Under the pieces are notes generated by a model. The model was not told where the DNA came from. It saw nothing but the letters and a program-made list of their open reading frames with translations, and did not search any database. A stretch of DNA of 64,000 bases, from positions 4,382,369-4,446,368 of the forward strand of contig OZ242313.1 of the NCBI GenBank assembly GCA_965208065.1, given 5' to 3'. Within the stretch, counting starts at the first letter, position 1. The number at the start of each line of letters is the position of its first letter. Source of the stretch: Spirochaetia bacterium. GTDB lineage: Bacteria; Spirochaetota; Spirochaetia; SZUA-6; Bin103. The position numbers were made by a program, and so were the translations under genes. Of the stretch, positions 9,304-63,223 are shown piece after piece.

Positions 9304-10167
9304 ATGGCTACTGCCCTGCCCCTGGTTGCCCACTCCACGCTGGAGGAGCAGATTGCGGCGCTGGAGCGTGACGGCTACCTCTACATTCCCGGGTTTCTGA
9401 ACGCGGACGAGGTGGCCGAGTTGCGCGCCGCCGCCGCGCGCATCGCGCCGGTGCCGGAGAACCTGGACACCGACCTGACACCGGAGCGCGACGGCTACCT
9501 GAACAAGTGCATCAACAACGCGTTCAACCGCGACCCGCTGTTCCTGAAGTACCTCGACAAGCCGGGCCTGATCGACCTGGCCGAAGCGGTCCACGGCACC
9601 GACTGCCACATCATCGCCATGCACACCTGGATGGTGGGCCCGGGCCGTCCCGACCAGTCCCTGCACACCGACTGGCTGCCGATCTCCCTGCCCGCGGACG
9701 TGGCGGCCGATCCCCGGGTGCGCCTGCCGATCTTCATCACCACCGCCCACGTCTACCTGGACGACATCACCGACGAGATCGGGCCCACCGCCATCGTACC
9801 GGGGAGCCACCGCTCCGGGCGCGCTCCCGACCCGGCCCAGGACGCCAGCCGGCGAGGCGACCGCAGCCGCGCCAACGGCGGCGCGGCGCCGTCACAGCCG
9901 GAACTGGAGTGGAACGGCGTTGGCGAGCACAGCCCGCTGTGCAAGGCGGGCGACTGCCTGTTCTTCCGCTGCGAACTGTGGCACCGCGGCGCCGCCAACC
10001 GCAGCGGCCGCATCCGCCACACCTTCATGATTCACTACGCGCACCGCATGATTGCCCAGAAGTTCCCGCCCTACCTGAAGTTCCGGTTCGACCCCGAGAT
10101 CGTCGCCCGTGCCACCCCGCGCCAGCGCCGCCTGCTCGGCGAGCACGCCCAGAGCAACTACGACTGA
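9304..10167 (+). CDS. phytanoyl-CoA dioxygenase (PhyH) family protein, paralogue 2
   Basis: 287 aa; PhyH-like 'SLHTDW' and 'WHRGAAN' motifs. Confidence 0.85.
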   Translation: MATALPLVAHSTLEEQIAALERDGYLYIPGFLNADEVAELRAAAARIAPVPENLDTDLTPERDGYLNKCINNAFNRDPLFLKYLDKPGLIDLAEAVHGTDCHIIAMHTWMVGPGRPDQSLHTDWLPISLPADVAADPRVRLPIFITTAHVYLDDITDEIGPTAIVPGSHRSGRAPDPAQDASRRGDRSRANGGAAPSQPELEWNGVGEHSPLCKAGDCLFFRCELWHRGAANRSGRIRHTFMIHYAHRMIAQKFPPYLKFRFDPEIVARATPRQRRLLGEHAQSNYD

Positions 10168-10202
10168 CCTGCTTCCGGCCGGTCGCGCCGTGATGCAGGC
10201 GC

Positions 10203-10577
10203 TCACGCGCGCAGGCATGGCACGTCGTAGCGGGGGATCGTGCCGTCGCGGGTCACAATGGTCAGACCCTCCAGACCAGCTTGCGCGATCTGGATGCGGT
10301 CGAACGGATCGGCATGGATCGACGGCAGTTCGGCAACCGCCAAAGCGTGGCGGACCGTGATCGGCAGGTGCTGAAACCGCTCCTCTTCAAGGGCGGCTTC
10401 GAGATCGTCGGGAGCCTCCAGCTTGCCGAGCTGACGCTTGATGGTAATCTCCCAGGCCACCGCCGCGCTCACGAACACCCGGGTGCGCGGGTCGGCGATG
10501 AGCCTGCGGGAAGGCGTTTGCAGCGACGCCGGATCATCCAGCCACCACAGCAGAACGTGGGTATCGAGCAACAGCAT
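10203..10577 (-). CDS. vapC: PIN-domain toxin VapC
   Basis: 124 aa; 'LLLDTHVLLWWL' N-terminus and acidic residues of PIN; immediately downstream of the antitoxin. Confidence 0.85.
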   Translation of the reverse strand: MLLLDTHVLLWWLDDPASLQTPSRRLIADPRTRVFVSAAVAWEITIKRQLGKLEAPDDLEAALEEERFQHLPITVRHALAVAELPSIHADPFDRIQIAQAGLEGLTIVTRDGTIPRYDVPCLRA

Positions 10578-12521: not shown

Positions 12522-13967
12522 TCATCCGCCGGTTCGAGCCGCCGCCGGTGGCCAGGCCGAGTTCAGTTCGTGGATTGCCAGCGAGACGAGGCGCACGCTC
12601 CCGCCCTCGGCGTACAGCTCCAGCGGCATGTCGCAGGCGGCGGGCAGGAAGCAGAACGATGCCGACACCAGGCCGGCGGCGGCGAATAGCTCCAGCGAGG
12701 TGCGGTCCACCAGGAGCTGCAGGCGCAGGCAGCCGTCGCCGTCGCGGGGCGCCGGGAACGGGTGGCCGAGCCAGGTGAAGCGGGCGGCCGCTACGTCGTA
12801 GCGCAGGTCGTGGCCGCGGACGCCGATGCCGAACGCCGCGGCGTCGCCGGGATCGATCACCGCTTCGACGTGGAACAGGTCCCAGGTGGTGTCCGGCGCC
12901 AGGTTGCGGTACTCGGTGGCGATACGGCTCTGCCAGCCAGGTCCGTGCACATGGTACAGGTCGTGCCGATTCGGGCCGGGGCTGAGCCGGTGCTCCTGCC
13001 AGCGCAGCGTGCGCCGGTGCAGGAGTTCCAATTCCTTCACCGGTTGCCGGCACAGCCGCAGCCCCTGCGGCGTGGTGCGCAGGGTCAGCTCCACCGGAAA
13101 CGACATCTGGCCGTTGAACGGCATCGCCGGGAAGTGCCCGTTGCGCATCCACGAGATCTGGATGCGGCGGCCGTCCTCCGTTGGCACGTCGCTCCAGGTC
13201 TGCGCGGCGTAGCCGTTGGCACCCATCTCGCAGCGCAGCGCCGGTGTCTCCGGCGTGAAGGTGGTTCCGTCGAAGCTGCCCAATCGATACACGCCGGCGG
13301 CACCCCAGAATACCCAGCGGGTGTCGCCCGGGTCGCCGTCCACCGGCAGCTCGAACAGGTCGGGGCATTCACCGGTGTCCGCCACCTCCAGGTCGCACAG
13401 GTGGCGCCATCGTTTCAGGTCGGGCGAGCCGTACAACGCGAAGTCGTTGCCGTCCAGGAACAGCGCCATGATCCACTGCCCCGTGGCTGCGTGCCGAATC
13501 ACCTTGGGGTCGCGGTTTTCGGCGCGCACGTGGCCGAGTACCGGGTTGCCGGAGTAGCGCCGGAAAGTGCGCCCGCGGTCGGTGCTGTAGGCGATTGCCT
13601 GCACGCACGGGGTGGCGCCCGGCTGGTTGGGCCGCGGCGCGCCGAAGCCGCCGGTGGTATACACCGCCACCAGGGCCCGCTCGCCGCCGCCGGCGAACCC
13701 GGTGCTGTTGTCGGTGTCCACCACCGCCGAGCCGGACCAGATGAAGCCGTACTCGTCGGGCGCGATGGCGGTGTCCAGTTCCCGCCAGTGCACCAAATCG
13801 GCGCTCACCGCGTGCCCCCAGGAGTTGGCGGCGTGGTTCATGAATCCCGGCGTGTGCTGAAAAAACAGGTGGTATTCGCCGCGGTACCAGACCAGCCCGT
13901 TGGGGTCGTTCATCCACGAGTGGCGCGGGCTGAAGTGGAACTGCGGGCGGTGCAACTCGTCGTACAT
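12522..13967 (-). CDS. glycoside hydrolase family 32 (beta-fructofuranosidase/levanase-type)
   Basis: 481 aa from the internal ATG (GAGGA RBS 8 nt upstream). N-terminal 'HFSPRHSWMNDPNG' GH32 catalytic signature plus downstream RDP and EC motifs. Confidence 0.85.
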   Translation of the reverse strand: MYDELHRPQFHFSPRHSWMNDPNGLVWYRGEYHLFFQHTPGFMNHAANSWGHAVSADLVHWRELDTAIAPDEYGFIWSGSAVVDTDNSTGFAGGGERALVAVYTTGGFGAPRPNQPGATPCVQAIAYSTDRGRTFRRYSGNPVLGHVRAENRDPKVIRHAATGQWIMALFLDGNDFALYGSPDLKRWRHLCDLEVADTGECPDLFELPVDGDPGDTRWVFWGAAGVYRLGSFDGTTFTPETPALRCEMGANGYAAQTWSDVPTEDGRRIQISWMRNGHFPAMPFNGQMSFPVELTLRTTPQGLRLCRQPVKELELLHRRTLRWQEHRLSPGPNRHDLYHVHGPGWQSRIATEYRNLAPDTTWDLFHVEAVIDPGDAAAFGIGVRGHDLRYDVAAARFTWLGHPFPAPRDGDGCLRLQLLVDRTSLELFAAAGLVSASFCFLPAACDMPLELYAEGGSVRLVSLAIHELNSAWPPAAARTGG

Positions 13968-14030
13968 GTCGGAATCCTCTGGTTGGTATGTTGACGGGAT
14001 TTCACCGGCGACTATAACATTGCGGCTTAG

Positions 14031-14600
14031 ATGTCGGTGCTCGAAACCATTGCCGAACGGCGTTCGATATTCGATTTCCAGCCCACGGCGGTGCCGCGCG
14101 AACGGCTGGAACGCGCCCTGCAGGCGGCCGTATGGGCGCCCAACCACAAGCTCACCGAGCCGTGGCGCTTCATCGTGGTGGGGCCGGAGGCCAAGGACCG
14201 GCTGTGCCAGGTCTACGCGCGCATCAAGCAGGACGACGTGAAGGCCGACATCGAGCCGCAGGCGCTGCGCGAGATTGGCCGCAAGACGGTCAAGAAGCTG
14301 ATGAGCAAGCCGACGGTAATGGCGGTGACCTGCGCCGTATCGGGCGATCCGTTCCTCGACCGCGAGGACTATGCCGCCACCTGCTGCGCCATCCAGAACA
14401 TCATGCTGGCCGCCTGGGAAGACGGCATCGGCATGCAGTGGAGCACCAGCGCCCTCATCGAAGATGCCGAGGCGCTGTCGATCCTGGGCGTCGATCCCGA
14501 ACGCGAACGGGTGGTCGGCCTGCTGTATGCCGGCTTCGCCGAGCGGGTGCCGGTCTCCAAGCGCAAGCCGGCCGCCGAAGTCACCACCTGGCTGGACTGA
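14031..14600 (+). CDS. nitroreductase family protein
   Basis: 189 aa; 'RRSIFDFQPTAV' nitroreductase N-terminus. Confidence 0.85.
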   Translation: MSVLETIAERRSIFDFQPTAVPRERLERALQAAVWAPNHKLTEPWRFIVVGPEAKDRLCQVYARIKQDDVKADIEPQALREIGRKTVKKLMSKPTVMAVTCAVSGDPFLDREDYAATCCAIQNIMLAAWEDGIGMQWSTSALIEDAEALSILGVDPERERVVGLLYAGFAERVPVSKRKPAAEVTTWLD

Positions 14601-14706
14601 ACCGTCCCCCGCCGCACCGCTGCCTAGGCTCGGGAAACCGTTAACCGGTGCCGATGCTACATTCATGGACACCTTGTTCGCGCTCCGCCGTGGCGAGCGC
14701 ATAGTC

Positions 14707-16398
14707 ATGCCCCGGCGGCGTTACCGGTCGTTGCTCGTCGTTCCCGTACTCGCACTGCTGGCCGGCTGTGGTGGATTGACCTCCGTTCCCACGCCGCCCG
14801 CGCCGGCTACGGCGCACCTGTACTGGACCGACGCCGGCACCAACACGATCCAGCGCGCCAGACTGGACGGCACGCAGGTCGAGAATCTCCTGCCGCACGG
14901 CCTGATTGAGCCGTACGGCATCGCGGTGGCCGTGGCCGGCGGCAAGATCTACTGGAACGACTGGGAGGTGGGAATCCAACGCGCCAACCTGGACGGCTCG
15001 GGAATCGAGACCCTGGTGCGCAGCACCCGCACGAACGGCCTCGCCGTCGATACCGCCGGCGGCAAGGTCTACTGGACCGACTACGGCGCGAACATGATCC
15101 GGCGCGCCAACCTGGACGGTTCGGCGGTCGAGGACGTAGTCATCACTTCCCTGGACAATCCCTACGGCATCGCGCTGGACGTGGCCGGTGGCAAGGTCTA
15201 CTGGACCGATTCCGGCACCGAGAAGATTCAGCGCGCGAACCTGGACGGCTCGCAGGTGGAAGACCTGGTGACCCTCGGCGTGAACAACCCGCGAGGCCTG
15301 GCGCTCGACATTGGCAGCGGCAAGATGTACTGGACCGACCGCAGCCTGGGCACGATCAAGCGCGCCAACCTGGACGGAAGCGAGTTGGAAGACCTGGTGA
15401 CTCCGGCGGCGCCGGGAGTGTCGTTCGCCCGTCGCGACGGCTTGGCGCTGGATGTGGGCGCCGGCAAGATGTACTGGACCAATCAAACGCTGGACAGGAT
15501 CCAACGGGCCAACCTGGATGGCTCCGACATCGAGGATGTCACGGACGATGTGGAAGCACCCTATGAAGTCGCGTTGGACGTTGCCGCCGGCAAGATGTAT
15601 TGGACCGACCTGAACAGGGGAATCCAGCGCGCCAACCTGGACGGCAGCGGCGCGGAGTTGCTGGTGGCCATGGGCATTTACGATCCGCGCGGCATTGCCG
15701 TGGATGGCAGCGGCGGCGCGATCTACGCGGTCGACGCGTACCCGAGCGAAGCGAAGCCGAACGAGATTCGGCGCTTCAACCTGGACGGCACCGACGGCGA
15801 GGTGCTCGCCCTGCTCGGCATGCGCGGCGCCCTGGCGATTGCGCTCGACGTGGCCGGCGGCAAGATCTACTGGACCGCCCCCAACCGCGACGATCCCAGG
15901 GAAGAAGCCAAAATACAACGCGCCAATCTGGACGGTACCGGTGTGGAGGATCTACTGACCGTGGCGGACGGCCTGGTCAGTCCGCAGGGCATCGCCGTGG
16001 ACGCCGCCGCGCAGCGGCTGTACTGGACCGACCCGGGAACGGCCAGCATCCGGTCCGCCAACCTCGACGGCAGCGACGTGCAGAACCTGGTGACCGCCGC
16101 CGACGGCCTGGAGAATCCGCAGGGCATCGCCGTCGGCGGCGGCAAAATCTACTGGACCGACCGGCGCACCGACAAGATCCAGCGCGCCAACCTGGACGGC
16201 AGCGGCATCCGCGACCTGGTAACGGGCGGCCTGTCCAATCCGCAGGACGTTGCGCTTGATGGCGAGGACGGCAAGCTGTACTGGACCGACTGGGGCACCG
16301 ACAAGATCCAGCGCGCCAACCTGGACGGCACCGCGGTCGAGGACGTAGTGAACAGCGGTCTCGTCGATCCCTGGGGAATCGCCCTCCACCGCCGCTGA
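14707..16398 (+). CDS. lipoprotein with 12 YWTD (LDL-receptor class B-like) beta-propeller repeats
   Basis: Signal peptide with lipobox 'LLAGC'; 12 copies of a ~43-aa unit 'GGKIYWTDxxxxxIQRANLDGSxxExLV...PxGIALD'. Confidence 0.8.
   Translation: MPRRRYRSLLVVPVLALLAGCGGLTSVPTPPAPATAHLYWTDAGTNTIQRARLDGTQVENLLPHGLIEPYGIAVAVAGGKIYWNDWEVGIQRANLDGSGIETLVRSTRTNGLAVDTAGGKVYWTDYGANMIRRANLDGSAVEDVVITSLDNPYGIALDVAGGKVYWTDSGTEKIQRANLDGSQVEDLVTLGVNNPRGLALDIGSGKMYWTDRSLGTIKRANLDGSELEDLVTPAAPGVSFARRDGLALDVGAGKMYWTNQTLDRIQRANLDGSDIEDVTDDVEAPYEVALDVAAGKMYWTDLNRGIQRANLDGSGAELLVAMGIYDPRGIAVDGSGGAIYAVDAYPSEAKPNEIRRFNLDGTDGEVLALLGMRGALAIALDVAGGKIYWTAPNRDDPREEAKIQRANLDGTGVEDLLTVADGLVSPQGIAVDAAAQRLYWTDPGTASIRSANLDGSDVQNLVTAADGLENPQGIAVGGGKIYWTDRRTDKIQRANLDGSGIRDLVTGGLSNPQDVALDGEDGKLYWTDWGTDKIQRANLDGTAVEDVVNSGLVDPWGIALHRR
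14800..16390 (+). repeat. coding tandem repeat, ~129 bp x12 (YWTD blades)
   Basis: Periodic recurrence of aacctggacggc / tactggaccgac at ~129-bp spacing in the DNA. Confidence 0.75.
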
Positions 16399-18297: not shown

Positions 18298-18369
18298 TCC
18301 CAGGAGCGAGACCCGCTCACGACCTAGGGCCTCCGGCAGCGCCCGTTCGTGGTCGGCCATCATCTCCTC

Positions 18370-20544
18370 CTACGCCTGCTCGTCGACGGCGCCCAGCTTC
18401 GCGGGCGGCTGCAGCGGCAGTTCGATCACCATCTCCGTGAACGCACCCGGCTCGGTGTTGACCTCAATGGTGCCGCCGTGCTCGCGCACGATGTCGGCGG
18501 ACATCGCCAGGCCGAGACCGGTGCCCTTGCCGGCCGGCTTGGTGGTGAAGAACGGCGCGAAGATCTTGGCCACGACCTCCGGCGGCATGCCGTCGGCGTT
18601 GTCCTTGATGCGGATTACGGCGCTGTCGGCGGTGCGCTTGCTGGAGATGTGCAGGGTCGGCTGGTAGGAACCGCCCTCGCTGCCGACGCCGGCGCGGCGC
18701 TTGTCGTCGGTGGCGTCGCAGGCGTTGGCCACCATGTTCAGGAATACCCGGCCAAGGTCTTGCGGGATCACTTCCATTTCCCCCAGCCCGGCATCCAGGT
18801 CGTACTGCACATCGAGTTGGAAATCCGGGTCGGTGGCGCGCGCGCTGTGGTAGGCCAGCCGTGCGTATTCCTCCAGCAAGCCGTTGATGTCGACCTTCAG
18901 CACCTCCGCGGAGTGGCGCCCGAGCATCAGCATGTCGTGCACGATGCGGTTGGCGCGGTCGCCGTGCGAGCGGATGCGCCCCAGGTTGTCGACCAGGTCG
19001 CCGGTGATCTCGGCGAGCAGCGAGCGCTGCTCCTCGTCCAGCTTGTCGCCGCCCTCCTCCAGCACTTCCTTCAGCTCGTCGATCAGCTCTGCCGACGCCT
19101 CCGAGAAGTTCTTGACGAAGTTCAGCGGGTTGCGGATCTCGTGCGCGACGCCGGCGGTCAGCTCGCCGAGCGCGGCCAGCTTCTCGCGCATCACGATCTG
19201 GTCCTGGGCACGGCCCAAGTCCTCGAGCGCCGTCTCGAGCTGCTCGTTCTTGCCCTTCAACTCATCCGCCAACCGCTCCACCAGGTTCAGGCGCTGCACC
19301 TCCAGGGCGTGGCGGCGGAACACCTCCAGGGCCGCGGCCATGTCGGCCACCTCGTCGCGCCCGCCGATCTCCACCCGCGCCTCCAGGTCGCCGCCGGCCA
19401 TGCGCCGCATCCAGTCGGACAGCTTGCCCAGCCGGTGCAGCAGCACCCGCCCGATGAACAGCCAGGCGATCAGCACGGCGCCGACCAGGCTGATGGCGCT
19501 GATCAGCAGCAGCAGCGTGCGGGCGGTCAGGATCGCCTGCGTGGAGGCCTGCGTCGCCGCCCGCGTGTGCCCGTGCGCGGTGCCCACCAACTCATCCACT
19601 ACCGCCACCAGTTCCACGGCGAGGTCCCGGTTGTGCGCCAACAGGTCGCGCTGGCGCTCGGCCAGGCGCAGTTCGCGAGTGCGCAGGTCGAAGCCACTGC
19701 CGCGTTCCAGGCCCAGTGCCACCAGCCGGGCGAAGATCGGCACCACTTCGGCGCGCAGGGAAGATTCCTCCAGCGCCGCCAGGCTGCGCTCGATGCGGCC
19801 CGCCGCGGACTCGAAGCGCTCGCGCAGCGGCTCGATCGACGAGGCGTCCTGCAGGTTGAATGCGCTTGCCAGAAGCTGCGAGGCGATGCTGCCGTCCGCC
19901 TGCAGGTCGGCGAGCCGGCGGTAGCGCCCGAGTTCGCGCTCCGACAGGTGCTCGGTGCGCGGCGCCGGCGGCTCGCCGAGGGTACGGTACCCGGTGATGG
20001 TGTAGAACAGCTGGTCGTCGATCGCCGGCACCACCAGTTCCTCCAGGCTGCTGCGCAGCGCGCCAAGCTCGGCGCGCAATTCGGCACTCTGTTCGTTGAG
20101 CGGGAACAGTTCGAGCATGCCGTCGCCGATCGCCTCGATATTGGACAGGAGCGTGTCGGCATGGGCGCGCACGCGCGCGATGGTGGCCGCGTCGGCGCCT
20201 ACCTGGTGCAGCGCATCGAGTTCCTCCTGCAGCGCGTCGTGGGTGTCGGTGATGCGGGAGGCAACGCCGGAGAACTCCGCACGCGTCGCGGCGGTGGTGA
20301 GCCGTGGCGCCGCCGCCACCAGGCTGCTGGCGTGCTGCGCAACGCCGAACGATGCCACCATCTCGGGAACGCTGCCTTCGTTCACCCGCCGCTGCACGCT
20401 GGCGACACGATCCAGGAACAGCCAGGCAACCAGACTCGCCGCGACCGTGAGCGTTACCGCGGCGCCGATGCCCAGGAAGAACTGGCCCGAGAGGCGGGAC
20501 GGGTAGTGCAGCAACTGCTGCAAGCGCTCTCTCACTCCCGGCAT
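18370..20544 (-). CDS. sensor histidine kinase with a large N-terminal periplasmic sensor domain and a HAMP domain
   Basis: Two TM segments flank a ~300-aa extracytoplasmic region; HAMP; HisKA 'AHEIRNPLN'; HATPase_c G-boxes 'GKGTGLGLAM'. Confidence 0.85.
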   Translation of the reverse strand: MPGVRERLQQLLHYPSRLSGQFFLGIGAAVTLTVAASLVAWLFLDRVASVQRRVNEGSVPEMVASFGVAQHASSLVAAAPRLTTAATRAEFSGVASRITDTHDALQEELDALHQVGADAATIARVRAHADTLLSNIEAIGDGMLELFPLNEQSAELRAELGALRSSLEELVVPAIDDQLFYTITGYRTLGEPPAPRTEHLSERELGRYRRLADLQADGSIASQLLASAFNLQDASSIEPLRERFESAAGRIERSLAALEESSLRAEVVPIFARLVALGLERGSGFDLRTRELRLAERQRDLLAHNRDLAVELVAVVDELVGTAHGHTRAATQASTQAILTARTLLLLISAISLVGAVLIAWLFIGRVLLHRLGKLSDWMRRMAGGDLEARVEIGGRDEVADMAAALEVFRRHALEVQRLNLVERLADELKGKNEQLETALEDLGRAQDQIVMREKLAALGELTAGVAHEIRNPLNFVKNFSEASAELIDELKEVLEEGGDKLDEEQRSLLAEITGDLVDNLGRIRSHGDRANRIVHDMLMLGRHSAEVLKVDINGLLEEYARLAYHSARATDPDFQLDVQYDLDAGLGEMEVIPQDLGRVFLNMVANACDATDDKRRAGVGSEGGSYQPTLHISSKRTADSAVIRIKDNADGMPPEVVAKIFAPFFTTKPAGKGTGLGLAMSADIVREHGGTIEVNTEPGAFTEMVIELPLQPPAKLGAVDEQA

Positions 20545-20566
20545 GTGCCCGCGACCGCCGTCTCGC

Positions 20567-21847
20567 TCAACGTCCCGGTGCGGAGCCGTGGTCCAGGGCA
20601 GCCGCCGGCCGGTACCGTCCATCCGCGCCGATCCGGGTCAGGAACACCGCGTCGGAGCCCTGGTTGTCGGCGTCGCCGTAGCGCAGCTCGAAGCCGTCGA
20701 TGTCGATCACGTCGCTGCCGCGCAGGCTGCCCAGAAAGCAGTCCCGCGTTACCTCGGCGCCGCAGCCCGCCACCCCCGCCACGGCCAGCCGCCCGGCCAG
20801 GTAACCCTCGAAGGAAACGAAACCGGGCTCCGCCTCAGGATCGTAAGCCGCCAGGGCGCGCAGGTAGGAGCCGACCACGGGCAGGGCGTCGTCGGTGGGA
20901 AACGGTACCACCTGGGTCACGTACACCCCTTCGCCGGCCGCACCGAGCTCCTCGGCGAGCGCGTTGCTGCCCACGAACGACACGGTAAGGAAGGCCGGAT
21001 CCATCCCCACGTGCCGCGCCCACCTGATCAGCGCCGCCACCGGCTGGTAGGCGCCGATCATGATCACCGCCTCCGGTTCGCCGCGGCGCAGGTCGAGCAG
21101 GGCGGTCTTCACGGCGGTGGTGTTGCGCGGATAGAGGCCGATCGACACCGGCTGCATGGCGCGCCGGTCGAGCGCCAGCCGCACGCCGCGGTAGCCGGCA
21201 CGGCCAAACGAGTCGTCCTGGTACAGCACCGCGATGCGGGTCACCCCCAGGTCCTCGGTCAGCCGGGCGACCATCTCCTCGGTCTCCTGGTAGTAGGAGG
21301 CGCGCAGGTTGAGCACGTTGTCCCACTCCGGATCGCGCAGGAACTCGGCGCCGGTGAACGGGGCGATATAGGGCACGCCCGCCTGCGCGGCGACTGGCGT
21401 CGCGGAGCGCGAGGTGGGGGTGCCGACCGCGCCGATCAGGGCGAATACCTGGTCCTCTTCGATCAGGTGGAAGGTGTTGGCGATCGCCGCCTCCGGCTCG
21501 TAGGCGTCGTCGTGGGACACCAGCTGCAGCCGGCGGCCGTGGACGCCGCCGCTGCTATTTGCTTCGTCGAACGCCGCCTCGATGCCCAGCCGCATGTTCC
21601 TGCCCAGCTCACTGGCCGGGCCGCTGAAGGCGGCCGACTGCCCAAACAGGATGCGCGCCGCGGACACGCCCGGCACCGGCGTGTCACTCGCCGCCGCGGA
21701 CACCGACGTGCCCGCTTCTTCGCTGGCCGCGGCCGGCGGCGCGGGTACCGAAGAGTCGTCCCGATCACAGGACAGCAGCCCGGCCAGCGATACGGCGCAG
21801 GCCAGGGACACGGCAGCCGCGTTGTACGCGTGACGCCGCGGCTTCAC
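20567..21847 (-). CDS. periplasmic binding lipoprotein, LivK/Peripla_BP_6-like (branched-chain amino acid-type ligand-binding fold)
   Basis: GTG start; signal peptide with lipobox 'LLSC'; type I periplasmic-binding-fold motifs; sits directly between the kinase and the REC-PP2C gene. Confidence 0.8.
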   Translation of the reverse strand: MKPRRHAYNAAAVSLACAVSLAGLLSCDRDDSSVPAPPAAASEEAGTSVSAAASDTPVPGVSAARILFGQSAAFSGPASELGRNMRLGIEAAFDEANSSGGVHGRRLQLVSHDDAYEPEAAIANTFHLIEEDQVFALIGAVGTPTSRSATPVAAQAGVPYIAPFTGAEFLRDPEWDNVLNLRASYYQETEEMVARLTEDLGVTRIAVLYQDDSFGRAGYRGVRLALDRRAMQPVSIGLYPRNTTAVKTALLDLRRGEPEAVIMIGAYQPVAALIRWARHVGMDPAFLTVSFVGSNALAEELGAAGEGVYVTQVVPFPTDDALPVVGSYLRALAAYDPEAEPGFVSFEGYLAGRLAVAGVAGCGAEVTRDCFLGSLRGSDVIDIDGFELRYGDADNQGSDAVFLTRIGADGRYRPAAALDHGSAPGR

Positions 21848-21851
21848 CGAC

Positions 21852-23024
21852 TCAGGTCTCGAATTCGCCGCGCGAGATAACCAGGCAGGTAACGTCGTCC
21901 GACTGCGCGGTGTCTCCGGCGAACGCGTGCACGGCATCGAACACCGCCTGGCTGGCCGCCCTGCTTCCCTCCGGGACGCCGCCGGCAAAGATGGCGCGCA
22001 GGCGCTGCACCCCGAACTCCTCCTGGTCGGCGTTCATCGCCTCGGTCACGCCGTCCGTGTACAGCACCAGCATTTCGCCCGGCTCGAGGGTCATGGCGGA
22101 TTGCGCGTAAGGGTAGTCGGGCATCACCCCCAGGGCCACCCCGCCGGTGAGCGGGAGCAGTTCGGAACTGCCGTCCGCGCGCACCAGTAACGGCGAGTTG
22201 TGTCCGCCATTGGCGTAGGTGAACGCTCCCGTCGCCGGGTCGAAGGTCGCATACAGCACGGTCACGAACATCAACCCCTGGTTGTCCTCGGTGAGCAGGT
22301 TGTTGACCTCCCCCAGCACCTCGCCGGGGTCGGAGAGCCCCACGGCGGCGCCCTTCAGCAGGGTGCGTGAGGACATCATGAACAGGGATGCGGGCACGCC
22401 CTTGTCCGAGACGTCGGCGATCGCCACCCCAACCAGACCGTTCTGGAGCGTCACGATGTCGAAAAAGTCGCCTCCGACCGCGCGCGCCGCCTCCATTTGG
22501 CCGTGAATCCGGTAGTCGCTGCCGCCGGGAAAGCGCGTCGGCAGGATCGACTGCTGCATCTTGCTCGCCAGGTCCAGCTCGTTCTGCAGCACCACCAGCC
22601 GGTCGCGCGACGCCAGCGCCTCGCGCCACTCGGCGACCCGGCGCAGCGTGCGTTCGATGGTGACCTTGAGATCCTCGAAGTCGAGCGGCTTGGTGACAAA
22701 GTCGAACGCGCCCCGGTTCATGGCGGTGCGGATGTTGTCCATATCGCCGTAAGCGGAGACGATGACGCAGCGCAGGTTGGGGTCGACCTTCGGAATCTGC
22801 GCGAGCAGGGTCAGTCCGTCCATCTTCGGCATGTTGATGTCGGACAGCACCATGTCGACGTCGCTGTGCACCTCGAGCATCTCCAGGGCTTCCACGCCGT
22901 CGTGGGCAAACACGAACTCGTAGCGGCCGGCACGGACGTCGCGCCGCATGCGCTGCCTTATGAGCGGCTCGACGTCCGGCTCGTCGTCGACGACCAGAAT
23001 CTTGTGCGGCTTTGCGGGGCTCAT
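21852..23024 (-). CDS. response regulator receiver fused to a PP2C-type (SpoIIE/RsbU-like) Ser/Thr phosphatase
   Basis: REC motifs (VVDDEP ... MVLSDINMP ... K) followed by PP2C/SpoIIE motifs (GGDFFD, ADVSDKG, YTDGVTEA); GGAGG RBS upstream. Confidence 0.85.
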   Translation of the reverse strand: MSPAKPHKILVVDDEPDVEPLIRQRMRRDVRAGRYEFVFAHDGVEALEMLEVHSDVDMVLSDINMPKMDGLTLLAQIPKVDPNLRCVIVSAYGDMDNIRTAMNRGAFDFVTKPLDFEDLKVTIERTLRRVAEWREALASRDRLVVLQNELDLASKMQQSILPTRFPGGSDYRIHGQMEAARAVGGDFFDIVTLQNGLVGVAIADVSDKGVPASLFMMSSRTLLKGAAVGLSDPGEVLGEVNNLLTEDNQGLMFVTVLYATFDPATGAFTYANGGHNSPLLVRADGSSELLPLTGGVALGVMPDYPYAQSAMTLEPGEMLVLYTDGVTEAMNADQEEFGVQRLRAIFAGGVPEGSRAASQAVFDAVHAFAGDTAQSDDVTCLVISRGEFET

Positions 23025-23053
23025 CACTACGCCTCCCCTGGTATGCTCCTGAG

Positions 23054-24532
23054 CTACGTCGGCGCCGCCTGCGAAACGGATGCCTCCATCCCGAACCGTT
23101 CGGTCGCCTGCAAGGTTTCCCGAACGTCGTCCCAGGTGGTGTTGTGGTTGATGATACAGAGCCTGAGCGCGAACGTCCCGTGCAACAGCGTCGACGACAG
23201 AAACGCGCGGTCTTCCCAGAACACGCGGGCCAGCACCTTGCGGTTGACCTGTTCCAGCGCCGGCTCGTCGTGGCCGCGGTCCGCCGGGTTGACGCGGAAG
23301 CACACGATCCCGAGCGACACCGGCGTCAGGAACTCCAGCACCGCGCTCTCCCGCACGTACTCCTCGGCGCGCGCAGCCAGCTCCATCCCCTTGTCTACCG
23401 CGCGCCGGAACGCCGCCATGCCGAAAGTCTGAATCGACATCCACACCTTCAAACCGCGAAACGAGCGGCTCAGTTGCAAGCCCCGGTCGGACATGTTGGG
23501 GTGGTTCGCCCCCCACACCGTGTCCTGCAGGATGTCGTGGTGCACTTCGAACGCGTGTTCGAGGGTGCGTGCGTCCTTGACCAGCAGCGCACCCGCCTCG
23601 TACGGCTGGAACAGCCACTTGTGCGGGTCCAGCCCGATCGAATCGGCGCGCTCAATCCCGCTCAGGAACTGCTTGCCGCGTTCGGTAACCACTGCGAAGC
23701 CGCCGTAGGCAGCGTCCACGTGCATCCAGATGCCCTCGGCCGCGCAGTAGTCCGCAATCGCCGGCAGCGGATCGACCGCGCCCGTGCTGCTCGTCCCGGC
23801 GTTCGCGCAGACCGCGATCGGGGTGCAACCCGCGGCGCGGTCGTCGGCCACGGCGCGCGCCAGGAGGTCCATGTCCAGCCGGAACTGCGCGTCGCTCGGC
23901 AGCAGCCTGATGCGTTCCGGGCGCACGCCGACGATGCGCGCCGCGCGGACGTGGGCGCTGTGGCTCTGGTCGCTCATGTACACGGTGGCGCGTTCCGGGT
24001 GGCCGGCCGCCTCGCGCGCCGCCACGAACGCATCGACGCTGGCCGCCGAGCCGCCGCTGGTCAGCAGACCGCCGGCGCCGTCGGGATAGCCGAGCCAGCG
24101 GCGAAACCAGTCGATTACCACCAACTCGACCTGGCTGGCCCCGCTCGCGACCAGCCAGGTGCAGGCGTTGACGTTGTAGCCCGCGGCCAGGAAATCGGCC
24201 AGTATGCCGGGCCAGGTTGGGGCGGACGGGATGAACCCGAAGCAGCGCGGGTGGTCCAACCGGATTGCGAGCGGCAGGATTTCGCGGGCGGCCTGCTCCA
24301 TTACCTCCACCGGCGGCCGGCCCGCCTCCGGGGGCGCGGCCATCAACTGGTGGTCGAGCACCTGCTTGAACTCGCCGTCCCAGGCGTTTTCGCCCGGCAG
24401 CTCCCCGATGCGCTCTACCAGCAGTTCCGCTGCCCGGCGCGCGAGATCGAGCATCTGCTCCGGCGCCATCGCCAAGTCATCGCGCACCTGGTCGTGCGGC
24501 GGCTTTCCCGTGCTTGTTGCGATCCTATCCAT
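23054..24532 (-). CDS. pyridoxal-phosphate-dependent group II decarboxylase (aromatic-amino-acid/DABA decarboxylase family)
   Basis: 492 aa; 'SIGLDPHKWL' PLP-lysine motif of Pyridoxal_deC; first gene of the minus-strand operon. Confidence 0.85.
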   Translation of the reverse strand: MDRIATSTGKPPHDQVRDDLAMAPEQMLDLARRAAELLVERIGELPGENAWDGEFKQVLDHQLMAAPPEAGRPPVEVMEQAAREILPLAIRLDHPRCFGFIPSAPTWPGILADFLAAGYNVNACTWLVASGASQVELVVIDWFRRWLGYPDGAGGLLTSGGSAASVDAFVAAREAAGHPERATVYMSDQSHSAHVRAARIVGVRPERIRLLPSDAQFRLDMDLLARAVADDRAAGCTPIAVCANAGTSSTGAVDPLPAIADYCAAEGIWMHVDAAYGGFAVVTERGKQFLSGIERADSIGLDPHKWLFQPYEAGALLVKDARTLEHAFEVHHDILQDTVWGANHPNMSDRGLQLSRSFRGLKVWMSIQTFGMAAFRRAVDKGMELAARAEEYVRESAVLEFLTPVSLGIVCFRVNPADRGHDEPALEQVNRKVLARVFWEDRAFLSSTLLHGTFALRLCIINHNTTWDDVRETLQATERFGMEASVSQAAPT

Positions 24533-24628: not shown

Positions 24629-25132
24629 CTACGATTTGCTCCAGGTACACTCGCCGGTCGTTACCAACCGATCGCCGGCCAGGTACTGGGTCGCGTAGGG
24701 GCAGGTTCCGGTGATGCCGGCGTACTTTCCGGTGCCACCGCGCAACTCCCAGCTGCCTTCGCCGCCACCGCCGGTGCCGATCGTACCCTGGTCCCGAATT
24801 GCCGTCGTGTACAGAAGGTCGCCATCGAGGTCGGTGTTCACGCACGGCGCCTCCAGCGTGATGCCGGCGTCCGAGCTGTGCGAAAACACCAGGCACTCGG
24901 AGGTACTGTGCATGCCATCGGCAAACGGACCGCCGCTGCTGTCGAGAACCGTCTGCGTGCCCTTCAACACGCCGCCAGTATAGGACTCATCGGAATGTTC
25001 CACGGTGATGTACGAGTGCTGGTAACTTCTGAGCATGAAAAAGGTTCCGCTCTCGTCCGCCAGCGCCGTGCCGGCTCCCGCCACGAGCAGCGCCACGGCT
25101 GCCGCAATACCGATAGTCATTCGTTCGAACAT
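24629..25132 (-). CDS. secreted hypothetical protein (4 Cys, Gly/Thr-rich)
   Basis: Cleavable signal peptide 'MTIGIAAAVALLVAGAGTALA'; no recognisable domain. Confidence 0.55.
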   Translation of the reverse strand: MFERMTIGIAAAVALLVAGAGTALADESGTFFMLRSYQHSYITVEHSDESYTGGVLKGTQTVLDSSGGPFADGMHSTSECLVFSHSSDAGITLEAPCVNTDLDGDLLYTTAIRDQGTIGTGGGGEGSWELRGGTGKYAGITGTCPYATQYLAGDRLVTTGECTWSKS

Positions 25133-25308
25133 CGCAATACTCCCTTCGATCAAATCAGGCCGTTGCCTGCGTGCATTGGAATCGCCGCGAAGATAACTAG
25201 CACCATGACCGCTTTCAACCGCAAGGTTGCCAGCGCGGCCAGCGCGTCACACCCTCGACACCGGCGCGTTGCTCCTGCACCATTCAGCATACCGTGACGA
25301 GGAGGGCA

Positions 25309-30674: not shown

Positions 30675-30712
30675 ACAGACAGGCGTCTTGACATTAACAG
30701 ACATACGTCTGT
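30675..30712 (+). promoter_or_regulatory. candidate LexA operator: two AACAGAC half-site palindromes (AGAC-N4-GTCT) overlapping a TTGACA -35 (30688-30693) in the lexA promoter
   Basis: First copy is the imperfect 'acagac aggc gtcttg' (30675-30690). Second copy is the perfect 16-bp palindrome 'ACAGAC ATAC GTCTGT' (30697-30712), 15 nt before the lexA ATG. Confidence 0.5.
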
Positions 30713-30726
30713 ATTGTCGATTTCCC

Positions 30727-31368
30727 ATGACTGCCGCTTCCCGATACCGCTCCCAAGAGCGCAAACGGCGCATCTTCCTGTTTGTGCGCGACCGCATTCT
30801 GTCCGGGGCGCCGCCCACCACCCGCGAGGTGCAGGCCCACTTTGGCTTCCGCGCGGTACAGTCGGCGCGCGACTATCTGGAGGCCCTGGTGCGGGACGGC
30901 CTGCTGGACAAGGAGCCGGGCAAGGCGCGCGGCTACCGCCTGCCGGCCGGGAGCACGCCCTATCCCGCGGTGCTGGTGCCCCTCCTCGGACGGGTCCAGG
31001 CGGGCGCCCTCACTACCGCCAGCGAGGATCCGGACGGCTACGTGCCGGTGCAGTCGGCCAAGCCGCGCGACGAGCTGTTCGCCCTGCGTGTGCGCGGCGA
31101 AAGCATGCGCGACGCCGCCATTCTGCCTGGCGACGTGGTAATCGTGCACCGCCAGGAAAGCGCCGCCTCGGGCGAAATCGTCGTGGCACTGGTGGAGGAC
31201 GAGGCCACGGTAAAGCGTCTCAAGCTGCGCGCCGGGCGCATTGAGCTGCATCCCGCCAACCCGGCGTTCGATCCGATCGTGCCCGACGCCGACCGGGTGC
31301 GGATCCTCGGCAAGGTGATCGAGGTGCGCCGCTACCTGGAAGGCAGCGCCCCGGTGCTGGAACCGTGA
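30727..31368 (+). CDS. lexA: LexA repressor (S24 peptidase)
   Basis: N-terminal winged-helix region, Ala-Gly cleavage region, and Ser/Lys catalytic dyad ('GESM' ... 'KRL'). Confidence 0.9.
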   Translation: MTAASRYRSQERKRRIFLFVRDRILSGAPPTTREVQAHFGFRAVQSARDYLEALVRDGLLDKEPGKARGYRLPAGSTPYPAVLVPLLGRVQAGALTTASEDPDGYVPVQSAKPRDELFALRVRGESMRDAAILPGDVVIVHRQESAASGEIVVALVEDEATVKRLKLRAGRIELHPANPAFDPIVPDADRVRILGKVIEVRRYLEGSAPVLEP

Positions 31369-32084
31369 GCCCACCCGCTACGGACACGCCTCCGGTGGCG
31401 GACGTTGCCCTGATTGCGGGCGCTTCACTGGTGCCGGCCGCCGCCCTGTTGCCGGATGCCGCGCTGCAGCCGGCGGCTGCGCGCCTGCCGGGCGCCGCTT
31501 CGTTGATTGGCCGCGCCGACAGCGCCGAACGGTTGTGGCGCCCGGCGGAGCTTGCCGGGCGCCTGTGCGAACTGGCGTCCGACCCGCACGGGGTCCATCT
31601 GACCCTGGCCTGCGCGCTGATCCGCTCCTTTCAACAGGCCGCCGAACCGGCCGCCTGGGTCACCGCCTCCCGCGCCACCTTCTTTCCGCCCGACGCCGCC
31701 CACGGCGGCGTCGATCTGGCCGCCCTGCCGGTGGTTACCGTACCCGGTCCAGAGGCGGTGCTCAGCGTCGCCGAGCGGCTCACCCGGTGCGGTTCCTTTG
31801 GGCTGATCGTGCTGGAGCTGGGCACTCACCTGGCCGTACCGGCGGCCGTGCTCGGCCGCCTGGCACGCCTGGCGCGGCGGCACGATACCGCTCTGCTGTG
31901 TCTCACCACGTCCAAATCGGAGACTACCCTCGGGTCGCTGGTGGCACTCCGCGGGCGCGGCTTTCGCACTGCAACCCGCCATCCGGGCTACTTTCACTGT
32001 GGCATCCGGGTAATCAAGGATCGCCGCCACGGCCCCGGCGGGTCGCTGGCGGTCGCCTGCCATGCCCCCTACGGCATGTGTTGA
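31365..32084 (+). CDS. imuA: ImuA-like protein (RecA/SulA-fold component of the imuA-imuB-dnaE2 cassette), divergent
   Basis: Assigned from position (ATGA overlap with lexA, directly upstream of imuB) and size; sequence is Ala/Leu-rich and divergent. Confidence 0.6.
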   Translation: MSPPATDTPPVADVALIAGASLVPAAALLPDAALQPAAARLPGAASLIGRADSAERLWRPAELAGRLCELASDPHGVHLTLACALIRSFQQAAEPAAWVTASRATFFPPDAAHGGVDLAALPVVTVPGPEAVLSVAERLTRCGSFGLIVLELGTHLAVPAAVLGRLARLARRHDTALLCLTTSKSETTLGSLVALRGRGFRTATRHPGYFHCGIRVIKDRRHGPGGSLAVACHAPYGMC

Positions 32085-32085
32085 C

Positions 32086-33615
32086 GTGGGTGTGCTGCCG
32101 CTGCAACTGCTGCTGCGGCGGCACCCCGGCTGGAAACGGCAACCGGTCGCGGTGGTCAGCGAGGACAAGCCGCTGGGCATCGTGGTGGCAGTGAACCGGC
32201 GTGCCCGCGCCGCCGGAGTGCGGGCCGGGATGCGCTACGCTGCGGCGCTCTCCCTGGTCTCCCACCTGCACGCCGGTACGATCTCTCCCGACGACCTGGC
32301 GGCGGGAGTACGGTTGATCCGGGAGCGGCTGCTGACCATCAGCCCGCGGGTCGAATGGGGCGGCGACGGCTGGGCCGCTTCCGGGTTGTTCTGGCTGGAG
32401 GTGGCCGGTTTGCGGCGCCACTATCCCTCCGGCGCCGCGCTGGCCGACGCCATCGGAAAGCTCCTGCGCACCGCCGGCCTGGCAGCCGCGGTGGTGCTCG
32501 GCTACACCCGGCTGGGCACCTGCCTGCTGGCTCAGGACAGCGTCGCGCGGGGCGGCTGCCGAACGCTGGTGGTTGCCGATGAGGCCGGCGAACGCGCCGC
32601 CGTCGCCGCCGTGCCGCTCGACCGGCTGCCCCTGGAACCGGCGGCGCGCGACCTGCTGGAGAAGCTGGGCGTGGCCACCGTGGAGCACTTTCTGCGCCTC
32701 CCCTACGCCGAACTGCTGCGCCGCTTCGGGGCGCCGGTGGCGGAGTTGCGCCGTACCGCCCGCGACCCCACGCGCCTGCCCGTGCAGGGCCGCGACGCAC
32801 CGCTGCCGCTGCAGCAGCGGCGGCGGCTGACCTACCGGGCGAGCGATGCCGAACGCCTGCTGCGCCACTGCCGGGTGCTCCTCGACCGGCTGCTCGGCCG
32901 CCTGCAGCATGACGGGCGCGCGGTCACCGAACTGCAGTTGCAACTCCTGCTGGAAGACGGCTCGCGGCGGCACGAGCTGATTCGCCCCGCCGCCCCCACC
33001 CGCCAGCGTCACCTGCTGCTGGATCTGCTGGCCCTGCGGCTGCGGGCGCTCGACCTGACCGCGGGGGTGGAGGAACTGGCCCTCGACGCCCGCCATACGC
33101 CGTTGCCGGGCGGTCAGGGCGAGCTGTTCCGCACCAGCCAGAGACGCGACCCGGCTGCCGGAGCCGCCGCGCTGGCGAACATCCGCGCCGAATTCGGCAA
33201 CACGGCCGTGGTGCGCGCCGTACTGGAGGATGCGCACCTGCCGGAGGCGCAGTACCGCTGGCAGCCGGTCGACCGCCTGCAAGAAGCGCAACCGCGGCCG
33301 CCGGCGGCGCAGGCCGCACCTCTCGTACGGCGGGTACTCGCCCGCCCACAGCCCATTGCGGCGGCGCGGCGGCACGGCTGCTGCGGGCCCTTCCTGGTCT
33401 CCAGCGGCTGGTGGTACGCGAGCGCCGTTCCGCCAACTGGCGGTCCGCGGCACGGCAGCCCCCCTGCCGGCCACATCCACGACCACCAGGTCCCCTACGA
33501 CCGCGGCCCCGCCAATCGCGCCTACTACTTCATCAGCTCCGCGGACGGCACCCTGGAGTGGATCTACTACGACCTCCTCACCAGCCGCTGGTTCCGGCAA
33601 GGCTGGGTGGAGTGA
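32086..33615 (+). CDS. imuB: ImuB (catalytically inactive Y-family polymerase homologue)
   Basis: N-terminal '[13 protein letters not shown]...PVAVV' resembles the ImuB/DinB-like fold; GTG start 1 nt after the imuA stop; position between imuA and dnaE2. Confidence 0.75.
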
Positions 33616-33628
33616 ACGGACATCGGCG

Positions 33629-36871
<3,243 letters not shown>

Positions 36872-62543: not shown

Positions 62544-62545
62544 GC

Positions 62546-63223
62546 TCACGCCTGCTCCGGCACGAACCGGTAACCGGCTCCATACACTGTCTGGATGGGC
62601 TGGCGTCCAGCCACGCCGAGCTGCTTGCGCAGCCGCAGGATGTGGTTGTCGACCGCACGTTCGTAGGCGTCGAAGTCCTCTCCGAACGCCAGTCCTATCA
62701 GCCGCTCGCGGCTCAGCACCTGGTGCGGATGCCGCATGAACGCGGCGAGCAGCGCGAACTGGGCGCTGCTCAGTTCGATTGTCCGTCCTTCCACCGTCAC
62801 CCGACGGGTGGTTTCGTCGATCGTGATCCCGCCCAGGGTCAGCACCCGCTGCACGGTGTCCCCGACACGGCGCAACACCGCCTTGGCGCGCGCCACCACT
62901 TCGTCTGCATCGAACGGCTTCACCACGTAGTCGTCCGCGCCGCAGTCCAGTCCGGCGATGCGGTCGGCGTGGGTTCCGCGCGCGGTGAGCATGATAATCG
63001 GTACCGCCGATTCGCGCCGCAGGATGCGGCATACCTGCATCCCGTCGAGCCCCGGCAGCATCAGGTCAAGCACGATCAGGTCGGGCCGGCCGGCACGGGC
63101 CAGGGTAAGGCCGGTGCGCCCGTCGTGCGCCACTTCCGCGCGGTACCCCACCTGTTCGAAGCGGACCTTCAGCCAGCGCGCGATCCGCGGCTCGTCTTCG
63201 ATGATCAGAACCGAATGCCGCAT
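62546..63223 (-). CDS. OmpR-family response regulator
   Basis: REC 'VLIIEDEP...LDLMLPGLDG' plus winged-helix trans_reg_C 'YGAGYRF'. Confidence 0.9.
   Translation of the reverse strand: MRHSVLIIEDEPRIARWLKVRFEQVGYRAEVAHDGRTGLTLARAGRPDLIVLDLMLPGLDGMQVCRILRRESAVPIIMLTARGTHADRIAGLDCGADDYVVKPFDADEVVARAKAVLRRVGDTVQRVLTLGGITIDETTRRVTVEGRTIELSSAQFALLAAFMRHPHQVLSRERLIGLAFGEDFDAYERAVDNHILRLRKQLGVAGRQPIQTVYGAGYRFVPEQA

Follow-up and report, generated by a model that had tools for sequence, protein, structure and literature searches.

A sensory gene cluster of a sponge-symbiont spirochaete: a probable three-gene derivative of a five-gene partner-switching operon, with a recently inserted decarboxylase gene

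The 64-kb stretch of DNA analysed here (from contig OZ242313.1; hereafter, the window) belongs to a Spirochaetaceae bacterium that lives in symbiosis with the sponge Aplysina aerophoba, and it carries four consecutive genes, on the minus strand between positions 18370 and 24532, that encode a pyridoxal phosphate (PLP)-dependent decarboxylase, a response regulator with a PP2C-type phosphatase domain (REC-PP2C), a periplasmic binding lipoprotein and a sensor histidine kinase (Table 1). Exact copies of the regulator protein sequence are found in the assemblies GCA_026712845.1 and GCA_002238925.1 (MPNH01) and in several metagenomes, under the NCBI name Spirochaetaceae bacterium, and MPNH00000000 is bin103, a Spirochaetaceae bin of this sponge with a size of 5.5 Mb and 67.4 % G+C (PMC5649159). 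The G+C content of the window is ~68 %, and the remainder of it, which encodes PolA, LeuRS and a DnaE-type polymerase, looks chromosomal.

A preliminary description of the window had taken the four genes for a single signalling operon in which an extracellular, amino-acid-like signal controls amine production through serine/threonine dephosphorylation of the decarboxylase or of a partner protein. The open reading frames (ORFs) and their translations confirm the four minus-strand genes, and all four domain assignments are borne out by Pfam. The intergenic gaps are 29, 4 and 22 nt, so that the range of 20-30 nt given previously fits the first and the third, but not the gap between the REC-PP2C and binding-protein genes. 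The most likely start of the kinase gene is 20544 rather than 20622 because the ATG of the longest ORF, at the latter position, would run into the binding-protein gene. The four genes have the features of an operon in that they are co-oriented and separated by short gaps, and the sole minus-strand terminator-like site falls inside a coding region; however, synteny beyond the species holds for three genes only. A different explanation is considered probable, namely, that the locus is a reduced, three-gene derivative of a five-gene partner-switching operon, with the decarboxylase gene recently inserted into the leader. This grading applies to the explanation as a whole, that is, the reduced module, the insertion and the mechanism proposed below.

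Table 1. Features of the decarboxylase-kinase locus and other features of the window (positions in the window)
Feature	Position	Strand	Description
Small predicted secreted protein	24629..25153	minus	~167-174 amino acids; signal-like hydrophobic N-terminus; several cysteines; without Pfam family
Conserved leader GGTTGCGGCGGTTTGCTCCTGACCGCGATGCCGGGGTAGCCTG	24581-24539	minus	from the intergenic alignment of the window, L094 and L096
PLP decarboxylase gene	24532-23054	minus	492 amino acids; Pyridoxal_deC and DPHKW motif
REC-PP2C regulator gene	23024-21852	minus	390 amino acids; Response_reg and SpoIIE
Binding lipoprotein gene	21847-20567	minus	426 amino acids; GTG start; Peripla_BP_6
Sensor kinase gene	20544-18370	minus	724 amino acids; TorS_sensor_domain, HAMP, HisKA, HATPase_c
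GH32 glycoside hydrolase	12522-14708		adjoins the YWTD-repeat protein
YWTD-repeat protein	14371-16398	plus	675 amino acids; ten LDL-receptor class B (YWTD) repeats, E=4e-87
LexA-associated mutagenesis cassette	~30700-36871	plus	LexA, small protein, IMS/ImuB-like polymerase, DnaE-type polymerase (33230-36871)
Second sensor kinase	61089-63065	minus	659 amino acids; HAMP, HisKA, HATPase_c

The decarboxylase gene is a recent single-gene insertion that lies outside the conserved system. When the window is aligned with the sister locus L094, the segments 26998-24539 and 23011-20594 match, and the space between them amounts to ~40 bp in L094 versus 1.5 kb in the window, which places the inserted block at ~24538-23012. 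The conserved leader lies ~24 nt before the regulator ATG in L094 and in a second sister locus, L096, but 6 nt before the decarboxylase ATG in the window, and the nucleotide homology of the decarboxylase to its orthologues is limited to the coding sequence (24494-23060). For a broader comparison, one genome per species was scanned with an alignment of kinase orthologues, which yielded 36 full-length matches (loci L012-L047), distributed over Dehalococcoidia and other Chloroflexota, Acidimicrobiia, Rhodothermales, Caldilineaceae, Alphaproteobacteria and Gammaproteobacteria. No decarboxylase occupies this position in L094 or L096, in the nearest canonical relative of the locus, L092, or in the 36 distant loci, none of which has a decarboxylase homologue within 10 kb of the core. 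The adjacency was found only in the window's own species-level population (L001-L005, from several metagenomes, at 98-100 % identity). The tree of protein identities, ((window, L094), L096), L092, makes one gain of the decarboxylase in the window lineage the most parsimonious scenario.

Because the decarboxylase gene sits between the leader and the regulator gene, it is probably now co-transcribed with the sensory genes. A possible -35 element (TTGCTC) and -10 element (TAGCCT) can be discerned by eye within the leader, which might thus serve as a promoter; a sigma-54 reading of the leader, also by eye, fails on spacing, and no riboswitch or other Rfam RNA element matches it at E<=1. The small ORF upstream of the leader is kept at the same position in L001-L005, L094 and L096, and the transcription unit may begin with it; a sigma-70-like match is located upstream of it, at 25218-25190, although such matches are no commoner than in shuffled sequence. 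The possibility that this ORF encodes a diverged STAS protein was ruled out, given its signal-like N-terminus and the lack of a match to Pfam or to the STAS profile.

The decarboxylase itself belongs to the group II PLP-dependent class, as indicated by a nearly complete Pyridoxal_deC domain (PF00282, E=8e-68, model positions 13-374 of 375) with the D-P-H-K-W motif that holds the PLP lysine. No substrate-specific NCBIfam equivalog model (for diaminobutyrate, aspartate, tyrosine, histidine and glutamate decarboxylases) reaches its cut-off, the best being that for the diaminobutyrate decarboxylase RhbB, at 209 bits compared with the cut-off of 900. By sequence comparison, the enzyme resembles aromatic-amino-acid decarboxylases (AADCs): the top solved relative is 4OBU (E=1.9e-82), the tryptophan decarboxylase of Ruminococcus gnavus, followed by plant tyrosine/tryptophan decarboxylases and AADC (1e-65 to 1e-48). 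The likeness to 4OBU and to the plant and animal enzymes thus consists in their being the best solved relatives and in the retained PLP-lysine motif, whereas the window enzyme differs in that it passes no equivalog model.

The proposal that all four genes form one pathway draws on several of these observations, in that the genes are tightly spaced and co-oriented, the decarboxylase gene directly follows the conserved leader and so is probably co-expressed in this species, several metagenomes contain the same arrangement at 98-100 % identity, and the enzyme resembles AADCs, whose products in symbionts have been proposed to act as host signals in another sponge (PMC10570526). However, the adjacency of decarboxylase and REC-PP2C, on whose conservation in other genomes the preliminary description made its proposal depend, is missing from L094, L096, L092 and the 36 distant loci, and orthologues of the enzyme (76-92 % identity) occur in five other contexts with neither a REC-PP2C nor this kinase. 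Two of these orthologues (91-92 %) come from the relatives themselves: one, L097, shares its 5.28-Mb contig with L096, at a distance of 1.4 Mb, and is flanked by cupin and AAA-ATPase/PDDEXK genes, and the other, L095, is in the L092 genome, adjoining an rve integrase gene. The others, at 76-80 %, come from another Spirochaetaceae genome, from Gemmatimonadota and from a Nitrospinae metagenome-assembled genome (MAG). An apparent second four-gene context, L006 (2907-4397), matches the window at 99-100 % identity from 24023 downwards, but the identity is only ~76 % in the 5' quarter of its decarboxylase gene (24473-24024), and the sequence upstream is unrelated; L006 is best read as an assembly chimera (or a recombinant) rather than as independent evidence. 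In L008 (Gemmatimonadota), a decarboxylase orthologue lies beside Peripla_BP_6 and Cache proteins, but this binding protein is unrelated to that of the window (30 % over 87 amino acids). Furthermore, STAS proteins are the known targets of PP2C regulators of this class, and one is encoded in the operon of the family itself, as described below. The four-gene pathway is largely refuted by synteny and is deemed distinctly unlikely, and its coupling of amine production to signalling finds no support.

Proteins that share 75-80 % identity with the decarboxylase (P0018, P0037, P0045, P0053 and P0120) are annotated from Spirochaetaceae, Latescibacteria, Gemmatimonadota, Nitrospinae and Alphaproteobacteria MAGs, the gene is tandemly duplicated in a Nitrospinae contig (L010, 155-3304), and PhyH and TauD dioxygenase genes recur near its orthologues. 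The high cross-phylum identity, the Nitrospinae tandem copy and the rve neighbour in L095 suggest that this gene is frequently transferred horizontally on its own.

In contrast to the decarboxylase, the other three genes are stable neighbours: the regulator, binding-protein and kinase genes are co-linear in about 33 of the 36 distant loci, and conservation in so many species genomes indicates that their adjacency is far beyond chance. Clustering of the flanking ORFs revealed two additional conserved genes, one encoding a 112-amino-acid protein upstream of the regulator and the other encoding a 139-amino-acid protein between the regulator and the binding protein; in Pfam, the former is assigned to STAS (E=1e-20) and the latter to HATPase_c_2 (E=8e-26), the domain of the RsbW-type anti-sigma serine kinases. 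The complete order, STAS, REC-PP2C, RsbW-like kinase, binding protein and sensor kinase, is found in 24 of the 36 loci. One more locus has all five genes with tandem STAS, five have the STAS gene displaced within the locus, and one (L015) has the five genes with a short, non-contiguous binding-protein ORF; the RsbW-like gene is missing from one (L040), only REC-PP2C, binding protein and kinase are present in one (L036), only the last two in another (L016), and two are cut by a contig end. Four-nucleotide overlaps between neighbouring genes of the operon are common. Altogether, STAS and RsbW-like genes are encoded with the phosphatase in 30-31 of the 36 loci and also in L092, the kinase of which is 82-83 % identical to that of the window, and in L093, both with the same five genes. 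The five-gene operon thus amounts to a partner-switching module under the control of a two-component system that is gated by a binding protein.

Kinase identity across this family is 42-65 % and that of the binding protein reaches 80 %, the latter value being that for a Dehalococcoidia MAG compared with the spirochaete; the family spans MAGs of the spirochaete, Chloroflexota, Acidimicrobiia, Rhodothermales and proteobacteria. Many of the genomes have names or sources that point to sponges, and several are demonstrably from sponges. This cross-phylum similarity, together with the many sponge-derived genomes, suggests horizontal spread of the family. In 11 loci (L012, L015, L017, L019, L031, L034, L039, L043, L045, L092 and L093), the five-gene operon is adjoined, upstream or downstream, by genes that encode a circularly permuted ATP-grasp protein and an Alpha-E protein, accompanied in L093 by a transglutaminase gene; these genes could be a regulated output of the operon.

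The window lineage has a shorter version of this arrangement. The sister loci L094 and L096, with kinases 86-88 % and 84-87 % identical to that of the window, share its flanks (MFS, DUF3179, M24 peptidase, 2-hydroxyacid dehydrogenase, CMD and the small secreted ORF on one side; SDR, PhyH and nitroreductase on the other), and their operon consists of regulator, binding protein and kinase only. In the alignment of the window with L092, the RsbW-like gene of ~420 bp is cleanly absent; the regulator stop and the binding-protein start are 4 nt apart in the window. Neither tblastn nor profile hidden Markov models built from 36 and 31 orthologues, run against all six frames, detected a STAS or an RsbW-like gene in the 64 kb of the window, in agreement with the preliminary description, which saw no STAS or anti-sigma partner. 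The hallmark of partner switching, a phosphatase gene accompanied by genes for a STAS protein and an RsbW-like kinase, is thus found in the relatives but not in the window. A three-gene form without the STAS and RsbW-like genes is also present in another phylum (L036, 7455-12139, Acidimicrobiales); because that locus was reduced independently, the switch genes have been lost from the operon more than once.

With two of the five ancestral genes lost, the three-gene remnant might be viewed as a decaying, non-functional leftover. Yet, its reading frames are intact and its catalytic residues conserved, and the ratio of nonsynonymous to synonymous substitution rates (dN/dS) is 0.07-0.25 in each of the three genes when three diverged genomes are compared; against the sister genomes, the PP2C part of the regulator gives 0.07-0.15, and the binding protein and the kinase give 0.19-0.25. 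Decay is already contradicted by this selection analysis and appears extremely improbable.

The regulator combines a receiver domain (~9-123; Response_reg, E=3e-25), with Asp62 as the acceptor, and a phosphatase domain (~196-385; SpoIIE, PF07228, E=4e-51, model positions 3-191 of 192). Across 38 orthologues, Asp13/14, Asp62 and Lys112 of the receiver are invariant, and the metal-binding motifs of the phosphatase, GGDFFD (Asp186/189), DVS (Asp204), TDG (Asp324) and DD (Asp375/376), are kept; the SpoIIE domain and these Asp motifs place the protein in the SpoIIE/RsbU family of PPM/PP2C phosphatases. The phosphatase is intact and under purifying selection, not decaying.

These features also bear on the possibility that the regulator was rewired after the loss of the STAS and RsbW-like genes and now has a substrate other than a STAS protein or serves, similarly to RssB, as an adaptor that depends on phosphorylation. 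Compatible with such a change are the disappearance of the two genes from the operon, which three related genomes share and which took place independently in L036, the substitution of Asp for Asn42, which is the sole conserved column specific to the reduced lineage among the 38 orthologues, and the identity of the closest solved protein, 3EQ2, which is RssB of Pseudomonas aeruginosa. The top NCBIfam match, the Pseudomonas RssB model NF045505, likewise points in this direction, but its score of 101 bits falls far below the cut-off of 700, so that the regulator does not qualify as an RssB equivalog. The retention of all PP2C catalytic motifs under strong purifying selection favours a working phosphatase over an adaptor, and the genome still encodes a STAS/RsbW-like pair that is closely related (see below). 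Rewiring is accordingly regarded as unlikely, if less so than the four-gene pathway.

The kinase consists of a membrane segment (~21-45), a periplasmic domain of ~300 amino acids, a second membrane segment (~336-372) and the HAMP, HisKA (with His468) and HATPase_c domains, so that two hydrophobic segments bracket an extracytoplasmic region of the length proposed previously. His468 and the ATP-binding (G-box) residues are invariant in the kinase alignment (A1), and HisKA and HATPase_c, as well as Response_reg of the regulator, all score above their Pfam cut-offs, so that the two proteins have the sequence features of a HisKA-type two-component system. The preliminary description had named the REC-PP2C as the cognate regulator, and this assignment, with the phosphotransfer that it predicts, is supported by the adjacency to the kinase, which is kept in 33 of 36 genomes.

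The affinities of the sensor domain are with TorS. The TorS sensor domain model PF21689 scores 36.8 bits versus the cut-off of 27, and the TorS model TIGR02956 aligns over kinase residues 21-441 (E=3e-47), but with 161 bits versus the cut-off of 676, so that the kinase is not a TorS equivalog. A sequence search of PDB with the sensor domain gave no match even at E=10. In the AlphaFold model, residues 45-345 are all-helical (pLDDT 91), and the only significant PDB fold matches are TorS sensor domains, with TM scores of 0.64-0.78; among these are the TorS-TorT complexes 3O1H, 3O1I and 3O1J (TM 0.70-0.78, E ~1e-6). In the predicted structure, then, the sensor is a double four-helix bundle of the TorS type.

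The binding protein is a lipoprotein of the Peripla_BP_6 superfamily (E=5e-57) with the lipobox L-L-S-C27. Its designation as LivK-like can be maintained with respect to the superfamily only, not to equivalence with LivJ/LivK: the corresponding model, PRK15404, gives 69.6 bits versus the cut-off of 477, and LivJ and LivK are distant (E ~1e-15) compared with the best solved relative, 4KV7 (E=3e-73). The positions that align with the LivJ pocket are nearly invariant among 38 orthologues, so it is concluded that the proteins of this family probably share one ligand. This ligand need not be an alpha-amino acid because the counterpart of Glu226 of LivJ, which presumably binds the alpha-amino group, is Ser290, invariant in the 38 orthologues; the counterpart of Tyr202 is kept. 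The amino-acid-like signal envisaged previously is not borne out by this replacement. The proposed role of the protein as a ligand-binding co-sensor of the kinase appears well supported because the binding-protein gene lies directly upstream of the kinase gene in 34 of 36 genomes, often with a 4-nt overlap, the genes conserved around the core include neither an ABC permease nor an ABC ATPase gene, and the sensor of the kinase is predicted to adopt a TorS-like fold.

The preliminary description had left the phosphatase without a target, and the window alone indeed names none; however, the operon of the relatives carries a STAS protein and an RsbW-like kinase, and a close pair is encoded elsewhere in the genome. 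A search with the L092 STAS protein, followed by listing of the cluster members, led to the 113-amino-acid STAS protein MCY4485395.1 (Spirochaetaceae), which is encoded on the same 5,035,090-bp contig of the assembly GCA_026712845.1 as the window's regulator. Its locus (L098-L100; STAS gene at 10001-10342) includes, in this order, genes for an ammonium transporter, a 263-amino-acid protein, a HAMP-MFS fusion, an ABC_sub_bind binding protein, an 839-amino-acid HAMP/SpoIIE/HATPase_c_2 protein, the STAS protein and a 141-amino-acid HATPase_c_2 protein. The best operon-encoded matches for the STAS protein (74 %) and the small kinase (63 %) of this locus are the L092 proteins. The most economical model would be that MCY4485395.1 is the likeliest substrate of the REC-PP2C, with two phosphatases converging on one switch. 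The same pattern is seen in Bacillus subtilis, where RsbU and RsbP converge on RsbV.

Across L098-L104, a six-gene core can be recognized that comprises genes for a 263-275-amino-acid protein, a ~692-amino-acid HAMP-MFS fusion, ABC_sub_bind, a ~840-amino-acid membrane protein with a faint dCache match and HAMP, SpoIIE and HATPase_c_2 domains, the STAS protein and the RsbW-like kinase. The STAS/RsbW-like pair, which belongs to this core, could have originated by relocation or by paralogy. The pairing of such a phosphatase with a binding protein and a sensor that resembles a transporter is possibly worth a study of its own.

In the proposed mechanism, the lipoprotein would bind one conserved small ligand in the periplasm and then dock on the TorS-like sensor of the kinase, as TorT does on TorS. 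Docking would alter both the autophosphorylation of the kinase, at His468, and the transfer of the phosphoryl group to the REC-PP2C, at Asp62, and the phosphatase activity of the regulator would be switched thereby. In the ancestral operon, represented in ~30 genomes, the substrate would be the phospho-serine of the co-encoded STAS protein, phosphorylated by the co-encoded RsbW-like kinase; in the spirochaete lineage, where both of these genes are gone from the operon, it would most likely be MCY4485395.1.

Several observations weigh against this explanation. The six-gene core, from the 263-amino-acid protein through the small kinase, is conserved in L101-L104, and because it is separately conserved, its STAS/RsbW-like pair may be dedicated to the phosphatase of its own system and serve only that one. 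No sigma-factor gene is found among the conserved neighbours in the 36 loci, nor is any other output conserved beside the canonical operon, and in scans of the window, terminator-like and promoter-like matches are no commoner than in shuffled sequence. Finally, the genomes compared are all metagenome-assembled, so that misassembly is possible, L006 being one case.

Apart from the sensory locus, the window contains several other notable genes (Table 1), including a second sensor kinase and a protein with YWTD repeats, a type best known from animal LDL receptors. For the first three genes of the LexA-associated cassette (LexA, the small protein and the IMS/ImuB-like polymerase), the assignment follows that of the near-identical, annotated L001. 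Strains differ in the interval between the kinase gene and the convergent SDR gene: it is empty in the window (18298-18369), is occupied by a Phd/PIN toxin-antitoxin pair in L001-L005 (~14650-15400), which are otherwise 98-99 % identical, and holds unrelated genes without assigned function in L094 (10176-12207) and L096 (11222-12064).

Each element of the proposed system has counterparts among known systems. In Bacillus cereus, the RsbK-RsbY-RsbV-RsbW system places sigma-B under the control of a two-component system; as in the canonical relatives of the locus, a sensor kinase controls a REC-PP2C that is encoded together with a STAS protein and an RsbW-like kinase. However, RsbK is a cytoplasmic-type hybrid kinase without a binding-protein co-sensor, and the B. 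cereus locus encodes sigma-B, whereas no sigma factor is conserved here and neither the STAS nor the RsbW-like gene is present in the window. In TorS, a hybrid kinase, receiver and HPt domains are included, and the signal is passed to TorR, a DNA-binding regulator. The TorT-TorS systems of Vibrio parahaemolyticus and Escherichia coli (3O1H/3O1I/3O1J) resemble the window locus in the location of a binding-protein gene beside that of a kinase with a double four-helix-bundle sensor, a fold that is predicted here. They differ in that TorT is a Peripla_BP_1 protein and the window protein is a Peripla_BP_6 lipoprotein, the identity of the sensor domains is ~16 %, and the window kinase is a plain HisKA/HATPase protein without receiver and HPt domains, the predicted partner of which is a regulator with a PP2C output. 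According to Pfam, neither a TorT-family protein (Peripla_BP_1) nor hybrid-kinase domains nor a TorR-type DNA-binding output is present at the window locus. TorS is the textbook case of a kinase gated by a periplasmic binding protein, and LuxQ/LuxP, along with others, are likewise stimulated by binding proteins (PMC8050422).

With respect to the output, the closest parallels are HptB-HsbR(PA3346)-HsbA(PA3347) of P. aeruginosa (PMC8256260) and SypE-SypA of Vibrio fischeri (PMC12826045), in which the output of a response regulator sets the phosphorylation of a single-domain STAS protein. In contrast to the relatives of the window locus, which use a separate 139-amino-acid kinase (with none in the window), HsbR and SypE combine phosphatase and RsbW-like kinase in one receiver-containing regulator, and neither operon includes a dedicated kinase that is gated by a binding protein. 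In Anabaena, HenR acts on the STAS-domain glycosyltransferase All4160 (PMC13555669), which is again a case of a phosphatase acting on a STAS phospho-switch, with kinases encoded elsewhere and a non-sigma output, and is a precedent for an ‘orphan’ phosphatase with a distant STAS partner; there, unlike here, STAS is fused to an enzyme, and there is no binding protein or TorS-like kinase. Literature searches recovered such analogues only, and no cassette of a Peripla_BP_6 lipoprotein, a TorS-like non-hybrid kinase and REC-PP2C/STAS/RsbW was found. Each element therefore has precedents, and the combination is new among the literature searched.

One conclusion concerns the interpretation of gene neighbourhoods: tight spacing gave a recently inserted passenger gene the appearance of a pathway member, which calls for caution. 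A further scenario, speculative and judged to be about as improbable as the four-gene pathway, holds that the cassette, with or without STAS and RsbW, is a horizontally exchanged sensing system of sponge symbionts for one host or community ligand, and that its capture of the AADC-like gene brought trace-amine production under co-expression and perhaps tuning. In that case, a trace amine with possible host-signalling activity would be expressed together with the sensory system. If the mechanism proposed here holds, one compact operon would join the gating of a kinase by a binding protein, as in TorT-TorS, with phosphatase-driven STAS partner switching. The near-invariant pocket of the binding protein points to a common ligand, the identification of which could reveal a cue that is monitored by many sponge symbionts.

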